A DNA stretch of 64,000 bases, from positions 4,139-68,138 of the forward strand of contig CAVTUE010000005.1 of the NCBI GenBank assembly GCA_963737805.1. The letters are read 5' to 3'. The stretch comes from an uncultured Acidimicrobiaceae bacterium (GTDB taxonomy: Bacteria; Actinomycetota; Acidimicrobiia; Acidimicrobiales; RAAP-2). The position numbers were made by a program, and so were the translations under genes. Within the stretch, counting starts at the first letter, position 1. Each line of letters begins with the position of its first letter. Positions 2,026 through 25,478 of the stretch are shown piece after piece. Under the pieces are notes generated by a model. The model was not told the DNA's origin, did not search any database, and saw nothing but the letters and a program-made list of their open reading frames with translations.

Positions 2026-3717
2026 ATGCCTGGATGGATCGCGTTGATCGACGACGACACCGATCCCCGCTTCTCGCGGATCCTCGACGACTGGGGCGTT
2101 CCCCATGTTCGCCGCCACGCCCATCGCGGTGAGGGGTTCGACGAAGCCGGCCTCGCACGAGCCGCCGCGGTGGTGTGCGTGGAGATCGACGAGATCCACA
2201 CCCTGGAGACGGCGCTGCGCATCAAGGAGATCCGGCCGGATCTACCGCTCGTCGTCCAGCTGGCCAACCCTTCGGTGGCGCAGGCGCTCGAGCGGGTGTC
2301 CGGGCCGGGCAGCGTGCTGGACGTGGCATCCCTGGCCGCGCCCTCCTTCGTCGAGGCCTGCCTGGGACGGCCCTCCCACGCCATTGAGCTCGCCGGCGAT
2401 CGACTTCGCCGTCGTCCAGCTCGGCGTCGAGGCGTCGGAACACACGCACGACACGTTCCGGGGGCACTTCGGCCATCTGGCCCCCGTGGCGATCATGCCC
2501 TTCGGCGACGCGCCGATGGCGACCTGCCCGGGGCGCGACCACCCGCTGCACCGCGGTGACCGCGTCGCCGTCCTCGGCACCGCTGGACGAGTTGAGGAAC
2601 ATGGGGATCAGCACGACCCACACGCCGGACATCGGCCCCAGCGCTCCGTGGGCTTGGGCCGCCGCATCCGGCTCGCAGGTCGACATCGCCCTCGAGGAGG
2701 GCAACCGGGCCCTGGCCGTAGTGGCCTCGGCGCTGTTCGGACTGATTGTGGTGGCGACGATCGTCGCTGCACTTCGCCTTCCGGCCCCGCCGACGGCCAC
2801 ACCCACCTCGGTTTCCTCGTCCTCCCTGTACTTCACCGTCGAGACGGTGGCGACCGTCGGGTACGGGGACTACAGCTTCTCCGACCAGAGCCCGTGGCTC
2901 CTCGTCTGCGCCATCATCCTCATCCTCTCGGGCGTGGCGCTGGTATCGACCGCGTTCGCACTCTTCACCAACATTCTGGTGAGCCGCCGCATCGAGCGGT
3001 CACTCGGACGCCGGCAGGTGCCGGGGATGGTCAACCACGTCATCGTCATCGGCCTCGGCGCGGTGGGTATCAGCGTGGTGCGCCGGCTGGTGGCGGAGGG
3101 CGAGGCCGTCGTCGTCATCGAGCGGGACGCCGACAACCGCTACCTGGCCCAGGCCCGGGCCCTCGGCGTCCCCGTCGTCATCGCGGACGCCACGCAGTCG
3201 CAGACCCACCGCATGGTCAACATCGCCGACGCCAAGGCGGTCGCGGTGTTGACCAGCGCCGACCTGACAAACATCGAAACCGGGCTGTCGGTACGGGAAT
3301 CACTCGGGGAACGCTGGGACGACGTCCCGGTCGTCCTGCGCGGTCTTCGATCGTGAGCTGGCGCACATGATGGAGCGGAGCTTCGGCTTCCGCCACGTCC
3401 GCTCCACCTCGGCCCTGGCTGCGCCCTGGTTCGTCGGCGCCGCCCTCGGGCTCGACGTGCTCAGCACGTTCTACGTCGACCAACAGCCGTTCTTGGTGGC
3501 CGGCCTCACGGTGGCGCCGGACGGCGGCCTGCAGGGGCTGGCCATGCAGGATCTCTCGTCGCGGACCCGGGTGATCGCACTGAGCCGCGCCGCTGACGGC
3601 GTGCTCGAGCATCCACCCCGCCGGGGCACCGACTTCGCCGGCGGGGACACCGCTTCCTGCTCGGCCCCTACGAGGAACTCCTCGCGGGTCCTGCAGCGCG
3701 ATCAGACACCCGTCTGA
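2026..3717 (+). CDS. Potassium channel with flanking RCK/TrkA-N domains (at least 4 frame changes)
   Basis: Fragments are 2026..~2400, ~2400..2575, 2556..3356 and 3367..3717. The selectivity filter TVGYGD sits in fragment 2556..3356, followed by the Rossmann motif VIVIGLGAVG and VVVIERD. The N-terminal fragment looks like an RCK domain and the C-terminal fragment like an RCK_C domain. Confidence 0.8.
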
Positions 3718-3740
3718 GCCAGTCGGCATCATGGTGCGCC

Positions 3741-5994
3741 GTGACCATCGTCGAGGAGGAGACGCCCGGATCCCCCGCGGCCGCACCGCCTCCTGATCGG
3801 GCAACGCCCGCGACGAGGTCGCCGGCGCGGTTCGGGCCCTGGATCCTGGTCGCCCTCTCCATGGCCTGGGGGCTGTGGGAGCTGCGGCCCGAGCTCCGGG
3901 CCGTGCCGTACCTCGACGACAGCTCCCTGCACGAGCAGATGGTGCGCGCCGCCGCCGCCCGCATCAGCCAGGGCCACCTCCCGCTGACGAGTTGGTTCCC
4001 CTACCTCGGTCTCGGCTCGCCCCAGTTCCTGCACTACCAGAGCCTGCCGTCCATGATGACCGGCCTGATCGGCACGGCCGTCGATCCCGACACCGTCTTC
4101 CGCTGGTCGCTCTACCTCCTCCTCGCGCTGTGGCCGCTCGCCGTCTACTGGAGCGGCCGGCTGTTCGGGCTGAGCCGCTGGACCGCCGCCACGGCCGCCG
4201 CGGTGGCGCCCTTCCTCGCCTCGGCCGCCGGCATCGGCTACGAGACGAAGGCCTACGTCTGGGTCGGTTACGGCGTGTGGACCCAGCTCTGGGCGTCGTG
4301 GACGCTGCCGCTGGCGTGGGGCTTCACCTACCGCGCCCTGTCGACGCTGCGGGGCGCCTTCTTCGCCGTCCTCTTCATCATGCTGACGGTCGCGCTGCAC
4401 TACGAGACCGGATACCTGGCCTTCGTCCCGCTCGTCGTGTGGCCCTTCATCGTCCCCTCCGACCTGTGGCGCCGGCTCGGGCGCGCCGTCGCCCTGCGGC
4501 GCGGCCGCGCTGCTGGCCTCGGCGTGGGTCATCGTCCCGCTGCTCCAACAGTCGCATTGGGCGGCGCGCAACCAGGTGCTCGAGGGCACGGGGCTCGAGA
4601 ACGGCTACGGCGCCGGGCAGATGCTGTCCTGGCTGTTCACCGGGCATCTCTACGACGACGGCCGCTGGCCCGTCGTCACCGTCCTCGTCGCGGTTGGCAT
4701 CGGGTTCTGCATCTGGCGCTGGCGCTCGTTCATCGCCGGTCGCGCCCTCGTGCTCATCTGGCTGGTCACGCTCGTCATGTCGTTCGGGCGAACGACCTTC
4801 GGGTCCCTCTACGACATCGTGCCGGGCAGTAGCGACATCTTCATCCGGCGTTTCGAGATGGGCGTGCAGCTCTCGGGCACTCCTGCTGGCCGGCATCGGC
4901 CTCGTGTTCCTCGGACGCCTCGTGCTGCACGGCGTGGTCTGCGCCTGCTCCCCGAGGACCGCCGGGGATGGGTCACCCAGCCGGCCGGGCGCGGCATCGT
5001 CGCCGGACTGTGCATCGTGGCGACGATCGTCGTGCTCGCCCCCGCCTGGAGCGACCTGGACACCTACGACGGCCACAACGCGACGAACATCGGCCTCCAG
5101 GCCCAGGCCGACGCGCAGCAGGACCCGCAGATCGACCGCTTGCTGGCCTACGTGCGCGCCCATCCCAAGGGCCGCGTCTACGCCGGCTCGCCGACCAACT
5201 GGGGCCAGGACTTCACGGTGGGGGCGGTCCCCGTGTTCAAGTACCTCGAGAGCAAGGACATCGACGAGGTCGGGTACACGTTGCGCACGGCGTCGCTCAT
5301 GACGGATCCCGAGTACTTCTTCGACGAGACGAACCCGGGCGACTATCCGCTCTTCGGCATCGGCTACCTCATCACGCCCGCCGACATGGCGACGCCGGTG
5401 CCGGCCGACAAGGTCGGCTGCGCGGGCAACTACTGCCTGTGGGCGCTCCCGGACGCCGGCTACATCCACGTCTACGACACGACCGGCGTGCTGACGGCGA
5501 CCCGGGCCGACGTCGGGTCGCAGAGCACGACGCTGCTCGAGTCGCCGCTCCTCGAAGACCAACGCGACCTCACGGTGGCCTTCAACGGGCAGGCGGCCGC
5601 CACCCCGACCGCGCCCGACGCGTCGGCGCTGGAAGGCAAACCCGGGCACGTGGTCGTGGAGCACGCCGACCTCCAGAACGGCACGGCCCAGCGCCGTGGT
5701 CAGGACGAACCGCCGCGCCACGGTCGTGCTGAGCGCCTCGTACGACCCGGGCTGGCACGCCACCGTGAACGGCCACCCGGCGCCGACGGTCATGGTGGCG
5801 CCGGCTCTGGTCGGTGTCGTCGTGGGCCCGGGCGCCCACACGGTGACGTTCACCTACGGCGGCTACGGCTCCTACGCCCGCTGTTCGTCCTGGCGCTGGC
5901 GGTGCTCGTGGTTCTGGCCGTCGCTCCGCTGGTGTGGCGGCGGGGACGTGGACGTGGGCACAAGGACGTTCGTGGGGTTGCCGCCGACGGCTGA
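3741..5994 (+). CDS. Large polytopic membrane protein, possibly a GT-C-like glycosyltransferase (function tentative; at least 6 frame changes)
   Basis: A hydrophobic N-terminal half (WILVALSMAWGLWEL..., LLLALWPLAVYW...) is read across ORFs 3741.., 4576.., 3875.. and 5696... A soluble C-terminal part follows (DTYDGHNATNIGLQ..., SASYDPGWHATVNGHPA), then a final transmembrane helix. The stop is at 5994. Confidence 0.6.
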
Positions 5995-9536: not shown

Positions 9537-10667
9537 TTGGCACAGGTCAGCTTCGACGGGGCCACCAAGTACTTCGGTGACACCACCGCGGTCGACGACC
9601 TGACGCTGCACGTGGCCGACGGTGAGCTGCTCGTGCTGCTGGGCTCGTCGGGGTGCGGCAAGACGACGGCACTGCGCCTGGTGGCCGGGCTCGAGGAGCT
9701 GAGCAGCGGCACCGTCTCCATCGGCGACCGCGTGGTCAACGACATCGACCCCAAGGACCGCGACGTCGCCATGGTCTTCCAGAGCTACGCGCTCTATCCG
9801 CACCTGACGGTGTACAAGAACATCGAGTTCCCGCTCCGCCAGCGCGGCGTCGACAAGGAGGAGCGGACGACCAAGGTGAAGCGGGCCGCCGAGACGCTGG
9901 GGCTGGCTTAGCGCTGCTCGATCGCAAGCCTGGACAGCTCTCCGGTGGCCAGCGCCAGCGGGTGGCGCTGGCCCGGGCCATCGTGCGCGAGCCCACCGTG
10001 TTCCTCATGGACGAGCCGCTGTCGAACCTCGATGCCGCGCTGCGCGTGCAGACGCGGGCCGACATCGTCGAACTGCAGGCGCGGCTCTCGACCACCACGC
10101 TCTACGTCACCCACGATCAGGTGGAGGCCATGACGATGGGCGACCGCATCGCCGTCATGAGCGACGGGAAGCTGCAGCAGGTGGCCGCGCCCGAGGATCT
10201 CTACGCGCGGCCGGCCAACGCGTTCGTGGCCCACTTCCTCGGCAGCCCCGGCATGAACCTCATGCAGGGGATGCTCGTCGAGAGCGGGGCGCCCGACGCC
10301 GAGGGCGCGGACCGGCACGGGACGTTGAGCGTGGCCTTCCCCGGCGCCTCGGTGCCGCTGCCCGCCCGCGGTGGCCGACGCCGTCCGGGGGTCCGGACCC
10401 GACGTCCAGCTGGGCCTGCGGCCCGAGGCTCTGCACCTCAGCCCCGACGGCGCCATCGAGGCCAGCGTGATCATCGTCGAACTGCTGGGCGCCGAGACGC
10501 ACGTGATCTGCCACACCGAGACGGGCGCCCGGATCATCGTGCGCCAGAGCGCCTCGGCGGCCAAGCCCAAGATCGGCGACGCCGTGCGCATCGGCGTCGA
10601 CCCGGACCCGGCCTCGTACCACCTCTTCGACGCGGCCACCGGAGCCCGCCTGGGCGGCGCGCCGTGA
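9537..10667 (+). CDS. Sugar ABC transporter ATP-binding protein (MalK/UgpC/MsiK type; frame changes near 9905 and 10365)
   Basis: TTG start at 9537 after GAAGGGAG. Motifs present are Walker [10 protein letters not shown], signature LSGGQRQR, Walker B FLMDEPLS, and a C-terminal regulatory domain in ORF 10371..10667. Confidence 0.88.
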
Positions 10668-11602
10668 CGGCGGTCACCGCCGCGTCCCCGGCGGTCGCTA
10701 CGAAGCCCTCCGGGGCCGTGCGCGCCAGCCGGCGCAAGCAGGCGCTGTTGGCCTACATGCTGCTCCTGCCCGCGCTGGTGCTCTTCGGGGTGTTCTCCTT
10801 CTATCCGTTCCTGCGCAACTTCAAGCTGATGCTCTACGAGACGCCGCCGGTGCCGGGCCTGCCGCCGCACTACGTGGGACTGCACCAGATCATCCCCACC
10901 ATCACCTCGACCCAGTTCACGCAGAGCCTCGTCACCACGCTGCTCTTCGTGGTCCTGGTCGTGCCGATCAGCCTCATCGCCGGGCTGGCCCTCGCCGTGG
11001 CGGCGCACCGCAAGCTGAAGGGCATGGCCGCCTACCGGGTCATCTTCTCCTCCACCGTGGTCAGCTCCGTCGCCGTGGCCTCGGTCGTGTTCGGGACTCT
11101 GCTCAATCCGGTGGTGGGGCTGCTGCCCTGGCTCGGCATCAACCCGACCCCGCCGGCGCTCGAGAGCTCGACCTGGGCCCTGCCCGCGGTGGCGCTCATC
11201 ACCATCTGGCAGTTCCTCGGCCTGTCGTTCATCATCATGCTCGCCGGCCTGCAGTCGGTACCCGACGAGCTGCTCGAGGCGGCGCGCATCGACGGCGCCG
11301 GCCCCTGGACGCGCTTCTGGCGGATGACGGTGCCACTGCTCTCCCCCACCATCTTCTTCGCCGGGGTCGTGAGCACGATCTACGCCTTCCAGGCCTTCGG
11401 TGCGATCGACATCCTCATCGGGGCGCCGAACACCGTGCGGCTGCACACCAACGTGCTGATCTACAACATCATCAACACGTTGCAGATAGAGAACAACGCC
11501 GGCGCCGCGGCCATCATGGCCACGGTCCTGTTCCTGATCCTGCTCGTGCTCACCATCCTGCAGCTGCGCTTCCTCGAGCGACGGGTCAGCTATGCCCGCT
11601 GA
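10664..11602 (+). CDS. Sugar ABC transporter permease (UgpA/MalF type)
   Basis: The GTG start overlaps the upstream stop (GTGA). It has a multi-helix membrane profile and an EAA-loop-like motif, [24 protein letters not shown]. Confidence 0.85.
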
Positions 11603-16237: not shown

Positions 16238-17283
16238 ATGCACCGAAACCCCTTGCACCCCGACCGCGCCCACGGGCGCCCCCGCTCACCGCCACCGGGT
16301 CCGCCGGAGCGCCGCCATCGGCGCCCTGGCCCTGTGCGGCCTGGCCTTCACCGCTCTCCCGGCCGGCGCGCAGGGCGGCTCCGTGAACCTCGTGGCCTAC
16401 TCCACGCCCAAGCCCGCCTACACCGTGCTCGCCAAGGCCTTCGCCGCCACCAAGACCGGCGCGGGGGTGACGGTGACGCCCTCCTTCGGGCCCTCGGGCA
16501 CCCAGGCCACCTCCGTGGTCAACGGGCTGCCGGCGGACGTCGTGAACTTCTCGCTGGAGCCCGACATGACCAAGGTGGTCAAGGCCGGCCTGGTCTCGAG
16601 CTCGTGGAACAAGGGCCCGACCAAGGGCATGGTCACGAACTCCATCGTCTCCTTCATCGTCCGCAACGGGGAACCCCAAGCACATCACCACCTGGGCCGA
16701 CCTGGTGAAGTCGGGCGTGCAGGTCATCACGCCCAACGTCTTCAGCTCGGGCAGCGCCAAGTGGAACCTCATGGCGGCCTACGGCGCCCAGATCTCCCAG
16801 GGCAAGTCGCCGGCGCAGGCGCAGGCCTACCTCACGAAGCTGCTGCACAACACGGTGGCCCAGCCCTCGAGTGCCAGCGCGGCGCTGCAGACGTTCCTGT
16901 CGGGTCAGGGGGACGTGCTGCTCGACTACGAGGACGACGGGCTCTACGCCAAGAGCCAAGGCGAGGCGATCTCCGTCATCACCCCGCCGCAGACGATCCT
17001 GATCGAGAACCCCATCGCCGTGACCAAGACGGCGAGCCCGGCGGCCAAGGCCTTCGTGGCCTACCTTCTCTCCCCCGCCGGCCAGACGGTGTGGGGCAAG
17101 CAGGGCTACCGGCCCGTGCTCCCGGCGGTGGCGGCCAAGTTCAACTTCCCCAAGCCCAAGACGCTCTTCACCATCGACAAGTTCGGGGGGTGGACCGCGG
17201 TGAACACCAAGTTCTTCGACCCCCAGACGGGCATCGTGGCCAAGATCGAGCAGTCGCTCGGCGTCTCCACCGCCAGCGGATAG
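16238..17283 (+). CDS. sbp: Sulfate/thiosulfate ABC transporter substrate-binding protein (frame changes near 16300 and 16680)
   Basis: ATG at 16238. The signal peptide RRSAAIGALALCGLAFTALPAGAQG lies in the next frame. The mature part reads VNLVAYSTPKPAYTVL...GPSGTQA...SGSAKWNLMAAYGA. It is followed by cysTWA. Confidence 0.85.
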
Positions 17284-17296
17284 CGGTCGCCGCCCT

Positions 17297-18217
17297 ATGG
17301 TGAGTACGGGCGCCGTCGCCGACCTGGGTCTCCCGGGGAGTTCCGGCGCTCCCGCAGACCGCCGGCCAGGGCGGGGACGCCGGCGCCGCAATCCCCCCTC
17401 GGCGCCTCCCCCGGCCCTGGTCGCGGCGGGACGGGTGGCCGGGCGCGTCGGCGGTCCCGCCCTCGCCGTCACGTACCTGTCGCTGCTCGTCCTGCTGCCT
17501 CTCGCTGCGCTCATCACCAAGGCCTTCAGCGGCGGCTGGTCCGCCTTCTGGGACTCCGTCACCCAACCCGAGGCGGTCGCCGCCCTCGAGCTGACGCTGG
17601 CCGTCGCCGCCATCGTGGCGGTGGTGAACTCCATCGCCGGCCTGGCCATCGCCTTCGTGCTGGTGCGGGACGACTTCCGCGGCAAGGCGCTCGTGAGCGC
17701 CGTGATCGACCTGCCCTTCGCGCTGCCCACCGTCGTCGCCGGCCTGACGCTGCTGACGCTCTACGGCGTCGACAGCCCGTTGCACGTCGACCTGGCGGGA
17801 ACCCGCCTCGGCGTGGGCGCCGCGCTGCTGTTCGTGACGCTGCCCTTCTGCGTGCGCAGCGTCCAACCGGTGCTGGCCGAGCTCGATGCGGAGACCGAGG
17901 ACGCCGCCGCCTCCCTCGGCGCGACCCGGCGCCAGGTTCTGAGCCGGGTCATCCTCCCGAGCGTGCTGCCCTCGGTACTGGCCGGGGCCGGCCTCGCCTT
18001 CGCCCGGGCCGTGGGCGAGTACGGCTCGATCATCCTCATCTCGAGCAACCTCCCCTTCAAGACCGAGGTCGCCTCGTCGTACATCTTCGGGCTCTCCCAG
18101 AGCGACGACCTCCAGGGGGCCAGCGCGGTGTCCATCGTGCTCGTGGCCATCGCGCTGCTCGTGCTCATCGGCATCGGCTGGGCCCGCCGGCGCTTCGACG
18201 TCCCGGAGACGGTGTGA
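17297..18217 (+). CDS. cysT: Sulfate ABC transporter permease CysT (start uncertain; the N-terminal 45 aa may not be translated)
   Basis: Intact ORF with conserved CysT/CysW-type stretches [20 protein letters not shown] and [19 protein letters not shown]. Confidence 0.88.
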
Positions 18218-20021: not shown

Positions 20022-20062
20022 CGAGTCCCGCTCCCCGGCGAGGCAGGGTCGCCCTCATGTCG

Positions 20063-21587
20063 TCAGCCGACGGTGGGCCGCCGGCCTGGTTGCTGCGACG
20101 GCAGCGACTGCTCCTGGCCGGGGAACGGCGGCAGGGGCAGCGTCGACTGCTGCGTCTGGAAGGCCAGCTCCGCCGCGGTGGCCGCTGCCGTGGCGGCCGG
20201 GATGGCCGGAGCCGGCTCCGGGGACCGCTGGAAGGCGGACGTGAAGTCGCCGAACGTGCTGCGCCGCCAGGCGCTGATGTTGGGCGCGGCGATCCCCGTC
20301 ACCCGCTCGACGAAGCGGAGCACCGAGGTGTGGTCGAGTGGATCGGAACAGACGTTGCCGCCGACGGTCCAGGGCGAGATGACCATGGCGGGCACCCGGA
20401 ACCCGGACCCGAGGTTGAGCCCGCCGCCGGGCGTGCCTCCCGGTGAATTCAGCGCCGTGAACTCGTCCGCCGTGCCCTTCGGGGGCGTGATCGGTGGCAC
20501 GTGGTCGAAGAAACCGTCGTTCTCGTCGTAGTTCAGGATGAACACGGTCGAGTTCCACAGGTCCTCGTTGGCGGCCAGCGCCTCGATCTTGGAAGCCACG
20601 AACTGCGCCCCGGCGGCCGGAAGGAACGACGGGTGCTCCGAGGCGACGCTGGTCGGAAAGAGCCAGCTCACCGTCGGCAGCGTGCCGTTGGCGCAGTCCT
20701 CCTCGAAGGCCATGGTGGGGGTCGCTGGCCGGCGTGCCGTCGAAGTGCGTGCTGACGCCGAAGGCACTCTGGTAGAGGTTCGACGACGTGGGGGCGTTGA
20801 TGAACTGGCTGAAGAACTCGAGCACGTTGGTGCCGTAGTTGTCCGCCTGCTGGTAGCACTTCCACGAGATCCCGGCGGCCTCGAGACGCTCGGCCATGGT
20901 GGTCCAGTTGTAGGTGCCGTTCGGCGCGTTGTTGTCGAGCGCCGGCCCCCCGTTCTGCCCGTCGGGGTCGACGGTCCCGGTCATCCACATGGAGCGGTTC
21001 GGGTGGGTCGGTCCCAGGATGGAGCAGAAGTAGTTGTCGCAGATGGTGAACGTGTTGGCCAGCGCGTACTGGAACGGGATGTCGGCGGCCGTGTAATAGC
21101 CCATGGTGAAGGGACCGGCGGTGTCGCTGTCCGCCGCGATGTGCGACCGCAGCCAGCCGTCCATCTCGCCGTTGGCCCACGACGCGTGCTGCACCTGCCA
21201 GGCGTGGCTCAGTGAGGGGACGGCCTGGGCCGCTGAGTTCGAAGAATCGAGGTGGTACGGGAGCAGGAAGCTGTCGGGGTTCTCGCCATCGGGCTGGGCG
21301 AAGACGGAGCGCCCGAAGGGCAGCCGCATCGCCCTCGGATCGCCGAAGCCCCGTACGCCGGAGAGCGTGCCGAAGTAGTGGTCGAAGCTGCGGTTCTCCT
21401 GCATCAGCAGGACGATGTGCTTGACCTGGCTCAGGTCGAAGCTGGTCGGGTTGGCCCCGGCGATGGCCCTGCGGACGCTCGACGGCAGGTAGGCGGCGAG
21501 CGCCGCGCCGGCCGCGGCTCCGGCCCCTCCCTTCAGGAGCTGGCGCCGGGAGAACGGGGTGGCAAGGAACGAAGAGTGATTCGTCAT
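20063..21587 (-). CDS. Phosphoesterase-family phospholipase C / acid phosphatase with a Tat signal (frame change near 20740)
   Basis: The N-terminus MTNHSSFLATPFSRRQLLKGGAGAAAGAALAAY contains a twin-arginine motif. Further motifs are HIVLLMQENRSFDHYFG and PTVSWL...SEHP...ILNYDENDGFFDHV. Confidence 0.85.
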
Positions 21588-21652: not shown

Positions 21653-22836
21653 TCAGTGGTGGTGCCGCGGCGGGACCGGCGGGGCGGGAGCCTCGGGGCC
21701 GCCCGCGGTCGTGGTCGGGGGCGTGAACCCGGTGACGACGCGGACCCGGTTGTTCGACGTGTCGGCGACGTAGAGGTCACCCGTGCCGTTGTCCACCGAC
21801 ACCGCGAAGGGAGTGTTGAGCTTGGCGGCGGCGGCCGGACCGCCGTTGCCGCTGCTCCCCTTGGCGCCGACGGTGTTCACGACGGTCGAGATGGTCCCGG
21901 CCGGGGTGACCTCCCGTACGGCGTTGTTGAAGGTGTCGGCGATGAAGAGGTCGCCGGCCTGGTCCAACGCGACGCCCTGTGGGGCGTTCAGCCGGGCCGC
22001 AGTGGCCGGGCCGCCGTCGCCGCTGAAGCCCCCGAGACCGCCGGAGGCCTGGTCGGCGGCGACGTTGCCCGCCACCGTGGTGATGACCCCCGAGGTGGAG
22101 ACCCGGCGGACGACGTTGTTGCCCGAGTCTGCGATGTAGAGGTTGCCCAGGGAGTCGACGGCCAGCCCGGTCGGGAACGAGAGCTCGGCCCGCCACGCCA
22201 GCCCGTTGTCACCCCGGTACCCGGGATTGCCGTTGCCGGCGACGGTCGAGATCAGTCCCCGCGGGGTGACCTCGCGGACGATGTTGTTGTAGGTGTCGGC
22301 GATGAAGACGTCACCCTTGCCGTTGACGGCGACGCCCTGGGGGCTGTCGAGCTCGGCGCGTACGGCGAAACCGCCGAACTCGCCCCGGTTCCCTTCGGTG
22401 CCGTTGCCGGCGATCAGGTGGATGACGCCGTCGGGCGTGACCTCGCGTACCACGTTGTCCAGGGTGTCGGCGATGAAGACGTCACCGGCCTTGTCGCGCG
22501 CCAGTGCGGTCGGTTGGTCGAGAGTGGCCGCGGTGGCGGGGCCGCCGTCACCGCTCTCCCCGGTGGCCTCGTAGACCCGGCGATCGTCGCGGTGGCGGCG
22601 CCGATGATGCTCGCCACGACGTTGTCGTTCGTGTTCGACACGTCGATAGTGCCGTTGGCCGCGACCACACCTTGGGGGTTGTCGAGCGACGTCCCGGGCG
22701 GGGCGGTGAAGGTCACAGCAGCGATCGTGGGCGGCGTGGCGGCGGACGCCGTCACGACACTGCTCGCGACAGTCGTCACGACAGTTCCGCACACCGCAAA
22801 GGCCACGACGGCACGTCGGGTTCGGCTGGTGGGCAT
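21653..22836 (-). CDS. Secreted NHL-repeat protein (frame change near 22570)
   Basis: Signal-like N-terminus MPTSRTRRAVVAFAVCGTVVTTVASSVVTASA from ORF 22414..22971. At least five repeats of GDGGPATAA.L..P.GVAVD..G.L(Y/F)IAD..NN.VR.V follow, from ORF 21653..22846. Confidence 0.8.
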
Positions 22837-23255
22837 GGGTTGGCACCTTTCGTTCGTCGGCGTTGGAGAAGCGACGAGAGGTTCGTACCCAGGGTTCGTG
22901 ACGCGATCTCGGACAATCGGTGATGCCGAGATGAAATGAATTCGACCGTTGCGCGCGCTCGGCTTTGGCACCGGGGTGGCAAAGCGGGGGCCCGAAGGAA
23001 CCGGTGTGACCCCCTGTTCAACAGTCTGTGCATTGTCGGTCGGCGGTGCGCCGGACGCTCAAGAAAGAACCGACGTTCGCCGCTCGTCGGGACGCCGCGT
23101 GCGCGCCCGATGCAGTATCGGGATTCTGGCGCGACGAAGGTTGCAATGGGCGCTGCGGCAACCTTCTGAGCTATTTCACCTGGTCACGGACCCGGCCATG
23201 GTTGCCGCTCGGTTGCAAATTGGGCGAAACTTGTAGGTGGGAAAGGAGGGCACCG

Positions 23256-23396
23256 GTGGCACGGTCGTTTCTCCCTCCTCGCCTGTACAGACAGACGTGT
23301 CCCCTACCCGACAGACGTGTCCCCGCTGGAAGGACGTGTGTTCCACCACCACAGGGCAGACGTGTCCCCTGCCGGGCAGACGTGTCCCTTATGTGA
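23256..23396 (+). other. Candidate SD-led 46-codon ORF spanning the five phased direct repeats (coding status doubtful)
   Basis: GAAAGGAGG-gcaccg-GTG at 23256, ending TGA at 23394-23396, giving (M)ARSFLPPRLYRQTCPLPDRRVPAGRTCVPPPQGRRVPCRADVSLM. The SD and start context mimic those of the downstream repeat units. Confidence 0.25.
23293..23390 (+). promoter_or_regulatory. Five direct repeats of AGACGTGTCCC phased at about 20 bp (iteron or operator-like array)
   Basis: Copies start at 23293, 23313, 23332, 23358 and 23378, giving spacings of 20, about 19-20, about 25-26 and 20 bp. The third copy is degenerate (GGACGTGTGTTCC). The array sits immediately upstream of the 96-bp tandem array. Confidence 0.45.
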
Positions 23397-23404
23397 CAGC
23401 GCAC

Positions 23405-24066
23405 GAAAGGTGGCAGCCGATGACCAGTGGACGTTTTCCGAAGTGGGCCTAGAGAAGCCCGACCACCGATCCAGACATTCAACGCGCCGTACCCGAGTGT
23501 GAAAGGAGGCAGCCGATGACCAGTGGACGTTTTCCGAAGTGGGCCTAGAGAAGCCCGACCACCGATCCAGACATTCAACGCGCCGTACCCGAGTGTGAAA
23601 GGAGGCAGCCGATGACCAGTGGACGTTTTCCGAAGTGGGCCTAGAGAAGCCCGACCACCGATCCAGACATTCAACGCGCCGTACCCGAGTGTGAAAGGAG
23701 GCAGCCGATGACCAGTGGACGTTTTCCGAAGTGGGCCTAGAGAACAACCGAGCAAGACATTCAACGCGCCGTACCCGAGTGTGAAAGGAGGCAGCCGATG
23801 ACCAGTGGACGTTTTCCGAAGTGGGCCTAGAGAAGCCCGGCCACCGATCCAGACATTCAACGCGCCGTACCCGAGTGTGAAAGGAGGCAGCCGATGACCA
23901 GTGGACGTTTTCCGAAGTGGGCCTAGAGAAGCCCGACAACCGATCCAGACATTCAACGCGCCGTACCCGAGTGTGAAAGGAGGCAGCCGATGACCAGTGG
24001 ACGTTTTCCGAAGTGGGCCTAGAGAAGCCCGACAACCGATCCAGACATTCAACGGGGCGTACCGAT
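23405..24066 (+). repeat. Tandem array of seven 96-bp units (one 90-bp variant), each with an SD and an identical 10-codon mini-ORF
   Basis: Mini-ORF ATGs lie at 23420, 23516, 23612, 23708, 23798, 23894 and 23990. Each unit is GAAAGGAGG-cagccg-ATGACCAGTGGACGTTTTCCGAAGTGGGCCTAG plus a 54-nt spacer, and the mini-ORF encodes MTSGRFPKWA. Units are near-identical, with variation confined to GA(C/G)C(A/C)ACCGATCC. Confidence 0.95.
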
Positions 24067-24245
24067 GCTGGTACTGCCTGTAGCTCTGTGTTGTTCGACA
24101 CGGCGGCCAGCCGCCTTAGGCGATCTAGTCTCGCTGAGGCAGCAGCTGCCTTTGTCGCGTCAGAGACCAGATAGAAAATAATGAGGGACAAGCCGGCCAT
24201 GCGAAGGCCTCACAATCTGCGGTCCAGGTCACAGCTGCAGCCTCC

Positions 24246-25478
24246 GTGACCGTCCGCAACGGGTCAACGCACCGCATCTGGAGGAACCCATTCGGCCGTC
24301 CCTTCGCCCGCCTGTGGGTTGGCTTCACGCTGGCAAGTTCTGGTGACGGACTGACGGCCGGGGCGGTCCCCCTTATGGCTGTCGTCGTCAATCCCCACCC
24401 GCTGGCCGTCTCTAGTGTCGTCGCCGCGGACAGTCTGCCGTGGCTCCTCTTGGCACTCCCGGCTGGCGCGTTTGCGGACCGATTTGAGCGCGGCCCGCTG
24501 ATGGCGATCTCAAATCTCGGGCGCGCCGTCGCCATCCTGGGCGGCGCGTTCCTCATTCTGGGCGATCGCATGACCTTGGCGCTCTTGATCCTGGTCGTGC
24601 TGATCAACGCGGGCGGCCGGGCTGTCTACTACTCCTCGCTGCAGGCGATCGTGCCCGGTCTCGTGGAGTCGGACGCGCTCGAGCACGCCAACGGCGTCCT
24701 CACCGGCACCGAAGCGGCCACTGAGCATCTCGCCGGCCCAGTGATCGGCACGTGGCTCTTCGCCATGAGCAAGGCGGTGCCCTTCTTCGCCGACGCCATT
24801 GCGACAGTGTTGTCCTGCTTCTCCTTTGTCCGCTTCCGCTCGAAAGCACCGAGACCGGACGGGTCCTCGACCTCGGCCTGGGAGGGCGCCCGGCTCCTCT
24901 TCGGCGACCGCCGGCTGCGGATCCTGCTTCTGATGGTGGGCTCTTTGGCCGGACTTCAGGGGATGGAGGCTGGGGTCTTGGTGTTGCTGGCCACAACCGA
25001 GTGGGGCGTCCGAGCCGGTGCGTACGGGGTCTTCGTCGCCGTCGGCGCGGCTGGGAACCTCATCGGGAGTCTGGGGGCAAACCCGCTAGTCAGAAACTTC
25101 GGGAGCGCCCGCACCCTGATCGGTGCCGCGCTCATATCCGGCGTCGGCTACCTGATCATGGCGTTGGCCCAGGGCTGGGAGCTGGCCGGCCCTGCCTTCG
25201 CCCTGGTTGGATTCGCCGTAGGCGTCGGATCCGTGGTCGCCATCTCCCTCCGCCAGAGACTGACTCCAGAAGATCTCATGGGACGGGTCGGCGGCGCCTG
25301 GCGCGGCCTCGTGTGGGGTGCGGCGCCCGTGGGCGCGCTGGCAGCCGGAAGCCTGGCCTCGATCGGCGGACTCCGTTTGCCATTGGTGCTGGCAGGGACC
25401 TTGCAGTGTGCCGTTGCGGTGTTCCTTGCCCGTCCGCTCCTCCGGAGCCTCCGGGAGGGTACCCGCCCGACCGAATAG
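24246..25478 (+). CDS. MFS transporter (MFS_3-like)
   Basis: Intact 410-aa ORF with a GTG start and about 12 hydrophobic helices. The motif AFADRFERGPLM is comparable to the DRVDKRRLL motif of the MFS transporter at 397. Confidence 0.85.
   Translation: MTVRNGSTHRIWRNPFGRPFARLWVGFTLASSGDGLTAGAVPLMAVVVNPHPLAVSSVVAADSLPWLLLALPAGAFADRFERGPLMAISNLGRAVAILGGAFLILGDRMTLALLILVVLINAGGRAVYYSSLQAIVPGLVESDALEHANGVLTGTEAATEHLAGPVIGTWLFAMSKAVPFFADAIATVLSCFSFVRFRSKAPRPDGSSTSAWEGARLLFGDRRLRILLLMVGSLAGLQGMEAGVLVLLATTEWGVRAGAYGVFVAVGAAGNLIGSLGANPLVRNFGSARTLIGAALISGVGYLIMALAQGWELAGPAFALVGFAVGVGSVVAISLRQRLTPEDLMGRVGGAWRGLVWGAAPVGALAAGSLASIGGLRLPLVLAGTLQCAVAVFLARPLLRSLREGTRPTE

Follow-up and report, generated by a model that had tools for sequence, protein, structure and literature searches.

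The DNA analysed here is a 64,000-nt window of contig CAVTUE010000005.1 from an uncultured Acidimicrobiaceae bacterium, and the element under study is a tandem array of very short upstream open reading frames (uORFs) that lies between an NHL-repeat gene on the minus strand and a major facilitator superfamily (MFS) transporter gene on the plus strand (coordinates are those of the window unless a relative is named). The window is chromosomal DNA of high GC content with the gene order sulfate ABC transporter genes, PLC-type phosphoesterase gene, NHL-repeat gene, array, MFS gene and GAF-GGDEF-EAL gene; the neighbourhood also includes an FAD oxidoreductase gene, and no regulator gene is adjacent to the MFS gene. 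The MFS protein, for which an exact look-up returned no record, has as its best family match the DHA3-like TIGR00900 (2.A.1.21, drug:H+ antiporters; NCBIfam) at 144.8 bits, below the curated cut-off of 319.6 bits for that family; EntS, Tap and Mef (Mef(En2)) were also matched, though weakly. BLASTN of the region against plasmid and phage collections gave no match, and there is thus no sign of a mobile element. The features of the locus are collected in Table 1.

Table 1. Features of the array and MFS leader in the window (SD, Shine-Dalgarno sequence; H, hairpin or stem)
Feature	Position	Strand	Remarks
Upstream element	23200..23231	+	Two GGTTGC(AA) boxes 11 bp apart (23200, 23211), then GCGAAACT
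H1 hairpin	23239..23279	+	GGGAAAGGAGGGCACCGG...CGGTCGTTTCTCCCTCC; near conserved leader start; 5' arm resembles SD
Second, smaller amplification	23286..23400	+	CAGACGTGTCCCC x4 plus one degenerate copy; 20-22-bp period
Array	23405..24066	+	7 units: SD, 6 nt, 10-codon uORF1, stop-codon hairpin, linker into H3 5' arm
uORF1 copy 1	23420..23452	+	MTSGRFPKWA, TAG; SD is GAAAGGTGG
uORF1 copy 2	23516..23548	+	
uORF1 copy 3	23612..23644	+	
uORF1 copy 4	23708..23740	+	In the 90-bp unit, with divergent spacer
uORF1 copy 5	23798..23830	+	
uORF1 copy 6	23894..23926	+	
uORF1 copy 7	23990..24022	+	Only copy with the complete downstream leader after it
H3 hairpin	24056..24078	+	GGCGTACC-GATGCT-GGTACTGCC; 3' arm present only after last unit
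H4, long conserved stem region	24096..24157	+	CGACACGGCGG ... TGTCG
uORF2	24199..24249	+	MRRPHNLRSRSQLQPP; in-frame ATG also at 24181; TGA overlaps MFS GTG start (GTGA)
MFS transporter gene	24246..25478	+	Presumed regulated gene; Pfam MFS_1/MFS_3; GTG start

Tandem Repeats Finder reported the array as the sole strong one in the window, at 23405-24063 (period 96, 6.9 copies, 96% matches, score 1220), in agreement with a first-pass annotation of the sequence that had described seven tandem units with a 96-bp period and one 90-bp exception. Head to tail the units measure 96, 96, 96, 90, 96 and 96 nt, and the last is partial, diverging after ~89 nt. The 33-nt ORF ATGACCAGTGGACGTTTTCCGAAGTGGGCCTAG, which encodes MTSGRFPKWA, occurs seven times with 0 mismatches, at exactly the seven ATG positions first read; 100 shuffles gave an expectation of 0, and no further copy lies within the 64-kb window. 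It is preceded at a distance of 6 nt by GAAAGGAGG in six of the seven units and by GAAAGGTGG in the first, also as originally described, and the spacer, given earlier as 54 nt, in fact measures 48 nt between a stop codon and the SD that follows it (63 nt up to the following ATG). In every unit the three plus-strand frames are all closed, by TAG in the ORF frame, by TGA within GATGAC and by TGA across the GTGT/GAAA junction, and two minus-strand frames stay open across the array (ORFs 23171-24052 and 23304-24200). The lower GC content noticed in this gap between the two flanking genes was likewise borne out (0.59 in the array vs 0.685 in the window).

Arrays with the same unit boundaries are present in three further metagenome-assembled genome (MAG) assemblies, which together with the window represent three lineages with 7-9 copies each. 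When one genome per GTDB species was scanned for the pattern, two MAGs labelled uncultured Acidimicrobiaceae were found to contain it (Microflora Danica bins), at one locus in each; one of these is the L002 contig and the other, L003, carries a 91-nt unit x 6.9. In two ENA metagenome assemblies, L001 and L002, the array occupies the syntenic locus. Residue 6 of the encoded peptide varies by lineage, being F in the window (seven units, MTSGRFPKWA), T in L001 and L002 (nine units each, MTSGRTPKWA) and N in L003 (seven units, MTSGRNPKWA). An exact-pattern scan of JGI metagenome contigs for the SD together with the initial 14 nt of the ORF gave 0 matches. The array clade was found in ENA/NCBI MAGs only, with the possible addition of one Logan contig, L061 (92% MFS protein identity), which starts within a ..TSGRFPKWG ORF, as would fit a short-read assembly breaking at a repeat. 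Since independently assembled relatives have similar arrays at the same locus, it is unlikely that the array in the window is an assembly artefact.

Across the four assemblies an intact 10-codon uORF placed 6 nt after an SD is present in 32/32 units. By our count there are six variants between SD and stop codon in these units (one SD base in the window, one change in the SD-ATG spacer of L003, one Thr->Ser replacement, two synonymous CCG->CCA changes and one TAG->TGA), and ~20 substitution or indel events in the spacers. Between the consensus units of the three lineages, 4/48 columns vary in the SD and uORF vs 15/49 in the spacer (Fisher p = 0.009), and the comparison of substitution patterns across homologous arrays that had been proposed at the outset therefore places the variation mainly after the stop codon, with the ORF part conserved. 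Nucleotide identity of the MFS gene among these lineages is 89-94% (~6-11% divergence), which indicates that the array persisted through species-level divergence, and within each genome the units appear to have been homogenised, i.e. to have undergone concerted evolution after the first duplication. Unit lengths in the relatives include 91, 92, 94, 95 and 101 nt (94, 95, 96, 101 and 117 nt in L001/L002). The L001 and L002 contigs come from different samples. Over 3 kb of flanking sequence they show 100% identity, but the units of their arrays (at ~10179-11042 and ~10047-10883, respectively) differ in order and length. Among the differences are an internal duplication of 21 nt and an insertion of 5 nt in L001, and the loss of 1 nt in L002, which converts TAG to TGA; either rapid dynamics typical of copy-number repeats or long-read assembly error could account for this difference.

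With the MFS protein, 54 syntenic metagenome loci were retrieved, as well as several contigs on which close homologs lie. A unit profile yielded no more than weak single matches, just 5' of the MFS gene, in L017 and L007. In L017 these correspond to one SD and mini-ORF, TTAGGAGG-tggacg-ATG ACC AGC GAT GTC AGG TGG GGC TAG (MTSDVRWG), and in L007 to a single uORF encoding MTCESRWG; both loci keep the module beside the plus-strand MFS gene without the NHL gene. The nearest single-copy relative, L059, has an MFS gene 89.2% identical in nucleotides to that of the window and, at the homologous place, the uORF ATG ACA AGT CGA CGT GGC CTA AGG TGG GGC TAG (MTSRRGLRWG). Its NHL gene (236-900) appears truncated or degraded, with a 148-aa call vs ~395 aa in relatives, and its MFS leader is intact. 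L060 has a single uORF encoding MRCEAKWG. No array is present in a 79% relative, and L062/L063, which were checked as possible array carriers on account of their short-called MFS genes (367 aa), have one uORF1 and no array. In all ~36 loci with enough upstream sequence, from uncultured Acidimicrobiales, one SD and one such uORF, here termed uORF1, are found ~210-300 nt before the MFS start, and a systematic scan of 24 further loci and of the most distant ones recovered uORF1 in each. On comparison of these sequences, the array is a clade-specific set of amplified copies of a conserved single-copy uORF module.

The uORF1 peptides are highly variable in length and sequence, ranging from 4 to 10 codons and including MRWH, MRWK, MRWR, MSRWG, MARIG, MVRVG, MEIRFG, MTEYRWA, MNDFGLRWA, MSDFAVRWG, MTTIRWS, MSDVRWS and MCRCPSRWR. 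Only the last two or three residues are conserved, giving the ending [R/K]-[W/I/V/F]-x-stop, and the ATG always lies ~5-10 nt after AGGAGG. The R/K position is encoded by six codons (AGG, CGG, CGA, CGT, CGC and AAG) and Gly by four (GGC, GGA, GGG and GGT), and all three stop codons (TAA, TAG and TGA) are used. Retention of the end motif across many synonymous codons and three stops points to selection on the translated peptide, and the C-terminal motif of uORF1 thus bears a signature of peptide-level selection. The module has also been duplicated elsewhere, as the distant ortholog L037 (MFS 60% identical) carries a 77-nt tandem duplication (x2.1, at 3671-3828) with SD and MFCFDTKWG twice, both intact and with one synonymous difference between the copies, a duplication that is independent of the amplification in the window clade.

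The flanks of single-copy modules suggest how the array may have begun. In L060 the direct repeat CCGACGT flanks the module at 3728 and 3817, 89 nt apart, and in L007 the module-flanking direct repeat consists of TACCGACGTG and TCCCGACGCT. The unit junction in the window, at which CCGTACCCGA is joined to GTGTGAAAGGAGG, is the expected product of an unequal exchange between the two repeats, and the first duplication would on this basis have occurred by unequal exchange between flanking 7-nt CCGACGT repeats.

The remainder of the MFS leader also contains conserved elements. The GGTTGC(AA) boxes and the GCGAAACT segment that follows them form nearly invariant columns in 25 orthologous leaders; two boxes are present in the window and most orthologs and three, at an 11-bp period, in L062/L063 (L062 1998-2031). 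This element is a candidate promoter or operator of the MFS leader, with the look of a response-regulator-type operator or an unusual promoter, and a scan of window positions 23100-24300 for promoters (sigma-70 consensus) and terminators found none. Of 10 single-copy leaders that were folded, most include H1 in the minimum-free-energy structure. When this named structure was examined for covariation, 85.6% of cells were paired vs <=57% in slid controls, with compensatory changes at 7/13 pairs. The CAGACGTGTCCCC copies of the second amplification lie at 23292, 23312, 23357 and 23377, with the degenerate copy near 23335. At the linker between H1 and the first SD, single-copy relatives show no more than ..CCCCTACCTGTACCGACGTGCG.., and the CAGACGTGTCCCC repeat appears to derive from this linker; the linkers of the other array carriers contain small repeats of their own (22-nt x2.4 in L001/L002 and a 10-nt CGCACGACAG x3.7 in L003).

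Around the uORF1 stop codon, which was folded locus by locus, a local fold is present in all 28 loci, with the first paired base 2-9 nt before the stop. In most loci the 5' arm consists of the last two or three codons and the stop codon falls within the loop or beside it, and the arms themselves differ by locus (UUGGGC-CUAA-GCCCAA and UGGCAC-UAGAGA-GUGCCA, compared with GGGC..GCCC in the window). Relative to shuffled sequences, these stop-codon segments gave z < -1 in 19/28 loci (mean z -1.5), against +0.89 for the window's own unit. Further downstream, H3 is homologous to CGCCCCGT..ACGGGGTG of single-copy leaders, and the H4 region, also written CGACACGGCGGG...CCCGCCG.TGTCG, contains nearly invariant ATCGACACGGCGGG and CCCGCCG.TGTCG segments in 25 leaders; the 13 pairs assigned to H4 by RNAalifold are mostly invariant, and the stem is present in the minimum-free-energy folds of 10/10 leaders tested. 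On broad leader alignments RNAalifold yielded nothing beyond the H4 stem and a 4-bp pairing of anti-SD with SD, a limited recovery because these alignments are poor in their variable parts. A start-overlapping uORF2 (GTGA/ATGA), of ~9-50 and usually 14-22 codons, precedes the MFS gene in 15/28 loci, and translational coupling between uORF2 and the MFS gene is predicted from this overlap. Rfam searches of four single-copy loci at E <= 1 returned only sX7 (E = 1), far from the leader.

Two smaller observations concern start codons at this locus. The start at 24200 that had been proposed for a minus-strand protein belongs to a CATG that holds the conserved plus-strand ATG (24199) of uORF2. The start region of the NHL gene on the minus strand (22830-22856, CGAACGAAAGGTGCCAACCCATGCCCA) has 81% identity over 27 nt to 23400-23426 (CGCACGAAAGGTGGCAGCCGATGACCA, the SD and ATG of the first unit), a likeness that may be due to chance between two ribosome-binding sites.

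The array is probably best understood as a conserved leader-peptide module that was amplified in tandem in one clade, within the 5' leader of a DHA3-like, efflux-type MFS gene. By analogy with characterised leader peptides, we infer that the MFS gene would be controlled through ribosome sensing at uORF1. In such a system uORF1 would be translated and act as a ribosome-dependent sensor, with pausing or slow termination at its [R/K]-W-x-stop end remodelling the downstream leader (H2/H3/H4) and thereby setting translation of uORF2 and the coupled MFS gene; candidate output steps are H3/H4 remodelling, access to uORF2, or Rho. Each unit of the array would then be an independent mini-cistron. At a minimum, translation of all copies would keep a leader that is 0.6-0.8 kb longer covered by ribosomes, so that downstream MFS expression survives, and such coverage of the insertion would alone select for an intact SD and ORF in every copy. 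Further, non-exclusive effects could be that extra copies multiply the sensing step or that expression is tunable by copy number.

A serious alternative is that of a neutral minisatellite, which arises by slippage or unequal recombination and persists, with extra copies that have no regulatory function and uORFs that are intact merely from recent homogenisation or because broken copies would cause polarity. Several observations would suit such a history: the clade has other small tandem amplifications in the leader (20-22-nt and 10-nt), the differently arranged units between identical flanks in L001/L002 are the behaviour of a variable-number tandem repeat (VNTR), copy number varies between lineages (7 vs 9), and the RNA of the unit is not unusually structured. 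However, 7-9 copies have been retained in three lineages in spite of their MFS divergence, SD and uORF are significantly more conserved than the spacer, every ORF is intact, and the duplication in L037 also keeps both of its ORFs, which together leave neutral persistence the less probable explanation. The view that the product is the 10-residue peptide as such (a signal, the core of a precursor resembling ribosomally synthesised and post-translationally modified peptides (RiPPs), or a substrate or partner of the MFS protein), with its dose raised by amplification, would account for the strong SD and intact ORF in each unit and for a neighbour that is an exporter-type MFS gene. It is very unlikely given orthologs of 4-10 residues in which only the last two or three are conserved (e.g. 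MRWH and MVRVG), residue 6 that is F, T or N by array lineage, and the lack of any modifying enzyme, protease or receptor gene among the neighbours. A RiPP precursor was accordingly rejected on the variability of the peptide and on the gene neighbourhood (NHL, PLC, sulfate ABC, GGDEF-EAL and FAD oxidoreductase). Of the first-pass proposal that the units are leader peptides or RiPP-like micropeptides, the leader-peptide half is matched by the conserved single-copy uORF of the orthologs, and the micropeptide half is not upheld.

Two further proposals place the function on the minus strand. A minus-strand transcript would display seven CCUCCUUUC anti-SD copies, or a repeated structured small RNA (sRNA), possibly in a long 5' region of the NHL gene, which lies downstream of the array on that strand; a unit does fold to -30 kcal/mol, including the 9-bp helix pointed out previously. 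This fold is no better than those of shuffled sequences (z -0.27 and +0.12; -0.27 to +1.10 over single-unit folds of both strands), and the idea of a structured sRNA was dropped for this reason. The Rfam scan that had been suggested gave no match in the region (E <= 10) or in the window, L017 and L007 keep the module without an NHL gene alongside, and conservation follows the pattern of an ORF on the plus strand (constant ATG spacing, synonymous substitutions and turnover of stop codons), all of which make a minus-strand RNA a highly improbable explanation. A protein of 32-residue repeats encoded by ORF 23304-24200 has next to no chance of being correct. Two minus-strand frames are indeed open across the array and gene callers gave such ORFs in relatives, but GC content at third codon positions (GC3) in these frames is 0.62 and 0.55 vs 0.82-0.86 in the flanking genes, and the unit lengths of relatives (91, 92, 94, 95 and 101 nt) cause the called ORFs to jump frame. 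A search with the 298-aa query among 5.8 billion predicted proteins returned two matches, both over homologous arrays (L001 and L002), which lack a Pfam domain and switch between both minus-strand frames.

The single-copy leader most closely resembles the ribosome-stalling attenuators known from inducible efflux and resistance genes. Mef belongs to the DHA3 family that is the best match of the window MFS protein, although the match of that protein to Mef(En2) is weak. In mef(E)/mel, the 8-codon ORF of Mef(E)L (MTASMRLR) with an AGGAGG ribosome-binding site in a 327-nt leader is needed for macrolide-induced expression of the efflux operon (PMC4335068). The uORF1 leader is similar in having a very short ORF with a consensus AGGAGG ribosome-binding site in a structured leader co-oriented with an MFS efflux gene, and the transporter family, leader length and absence of an adjacent regulator gene fit the analogy. 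It differs from mef(E) and erm leaders in its [R/K]-W-x-stop motif rather than MRLR, in that no conserved intrinsic terminator was found, in a second uORF that overlaps the MFS start, and in the seven identical copies of the window vs one or two (some erm genes have two leader peptides). With its conserved residues in the last two or three positions before the stop, uORF1 is more reminiscent of TnaC and PepNL, short upstream ORFs for which the regulatory event is impaired termination (PMC11890864; PMC8450073, PMC8429421). There is no sequence similarity to either, however, uORF1 uses all three stop codons, arrest is hypothetical here, and a uORF of as few as 4 codons is too short for tunnel structures like those of the 14-residue PepNL.

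As a repeat, the array invites comparison with other multiplied elements. Tandem riboswitches and T-boxes repeat a sensing module within one leader, which can sharpen or multiply the response, usually with two and rarely three aptamers; these are RNA aptamers, in contrast to an array of 7-9 identical mini-cistrons that are predicted to be translated. Mycobacterial interspersed repetitive unit (MIRU)-VNTR loci have units of ~40-100 bp. According to the passage of PMC12548453 that cites Supply et al. 1997, they are intergenic, co-oriented with a flanking gene and variable in copy number, with small ORFs thought to preserve downstream translation. The array shares with them tandem repetition in an actinobacterial intergenic region, small ORFs and variable copy number. 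However, MIRUs are dispersed at many loci with ORFs coupled by a 4-nt overlap, whereas the window unit occurs at one locus (in the 64-kb window and, by exact-pattern scan of representative genomes, at one locus in each of two MAGs), has 48 untranslated nt between stop and next SD, and carries its own SD and 10-codon ORF derived from a resident conserved leader peptide. The array is therefore not a MIRU, nor is it a known Rfam RNA, a RiPP precursor or a repeat protein; it would appear to work like a leader-peptide cis-regulator and to evolve like a copy-number-variable minisatellite.

Several points weigh against the amplified leader-peptide reading, or against parts of it. Conservation of the last codons could be partly at the RNA level, since the stop-codon hairpin takes its 5' arm from these codons; within one genome, copies can stay identical through concerted evolution alone; and the comparison of SD and uORF with the spacer rests on only three lineages. 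With respect to mechanism, neither the scan nor inspection of the leader alignment and folds revealed a conserved intrinsic terminator, the SD has a low and uninformative computed probability of being unpaired in this GC-rich RNA, and no known arrest motif corresponds to [R/K]-W-x-stop. The R/K-x-R/K pattern of macrolide-type leader peptides is present in a few orthologs only (MRWK, MRWR and ..SRWR) and not in the ..PKWA of the window. The hairpins around the stop and the H3/H4 stems are conserved, with no alternative-structure switch demonstrable. Finally, unit indels and the exact copy number may partly be errors if the MAGs are long-read assemblies, which is how they were read here because their contigs are Mb-scale with many apparent frameshifts. 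Within the window itself, the PLC-type phosphoesterase gene (20055-21587, minus strand) is broken across two frames that overlap (ORFs 20055-21587 and 20063-20767), and other long GC3-rich open frames overlap each other, e.g. 3597-5994 and 16570-18217. These overlapping frames suggest long-read frameshift errors, or pseudogenes, and in view of such frameshifts the small indels of the array units may likewise be errors.

A broader version of the leader-peptide amplification would treat the [R/K]-W-x-stop uORF with its hairpin-held stop, together with H1, H3/H4 and uORF2, as an undescribed ribosome-sensing leader of DHA3 exporters across the sampled Acidimicrobiales, and the array as its adaptive elaboration, in which a chain of identical sensors gives a multiplied or cooperative response or contingency-locus-like tuning by copy number. 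This extension is put forward tentatively and is rather unlikely to hold in full. Limited searches of open-access text found neither this uORF family nor an array of 7-9 identical leader-peptide cistrons described, which is weak evidence of novelty; the original impression that no element of this layout had been described thus stands, as far as found, for the 7-9-copy array, and gives way to derivation from an ordinary kind of element as regards its origin.

Bacteria classically switch on resistance and efflux genes by means of leader peptides that respond to the ribosome's state, and such peptides are normally present in one or two copies. The uORF1 family, with members of as few as 4 codons in a poorly studied order of soil actinobacteria, provides a new candidate arrest or termination motif, and the array constitutes a natural experiment in which a putative sensor module has been kept at 7-9 copies through species-level divergence and duplicated independently elsewhere. 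Gene callers make fictitious repeat proteins from such arrays, which calls for caution in annotation. A question raised by the array is whether repeating a translated sensor alters the gain, threshold or noise of the response.

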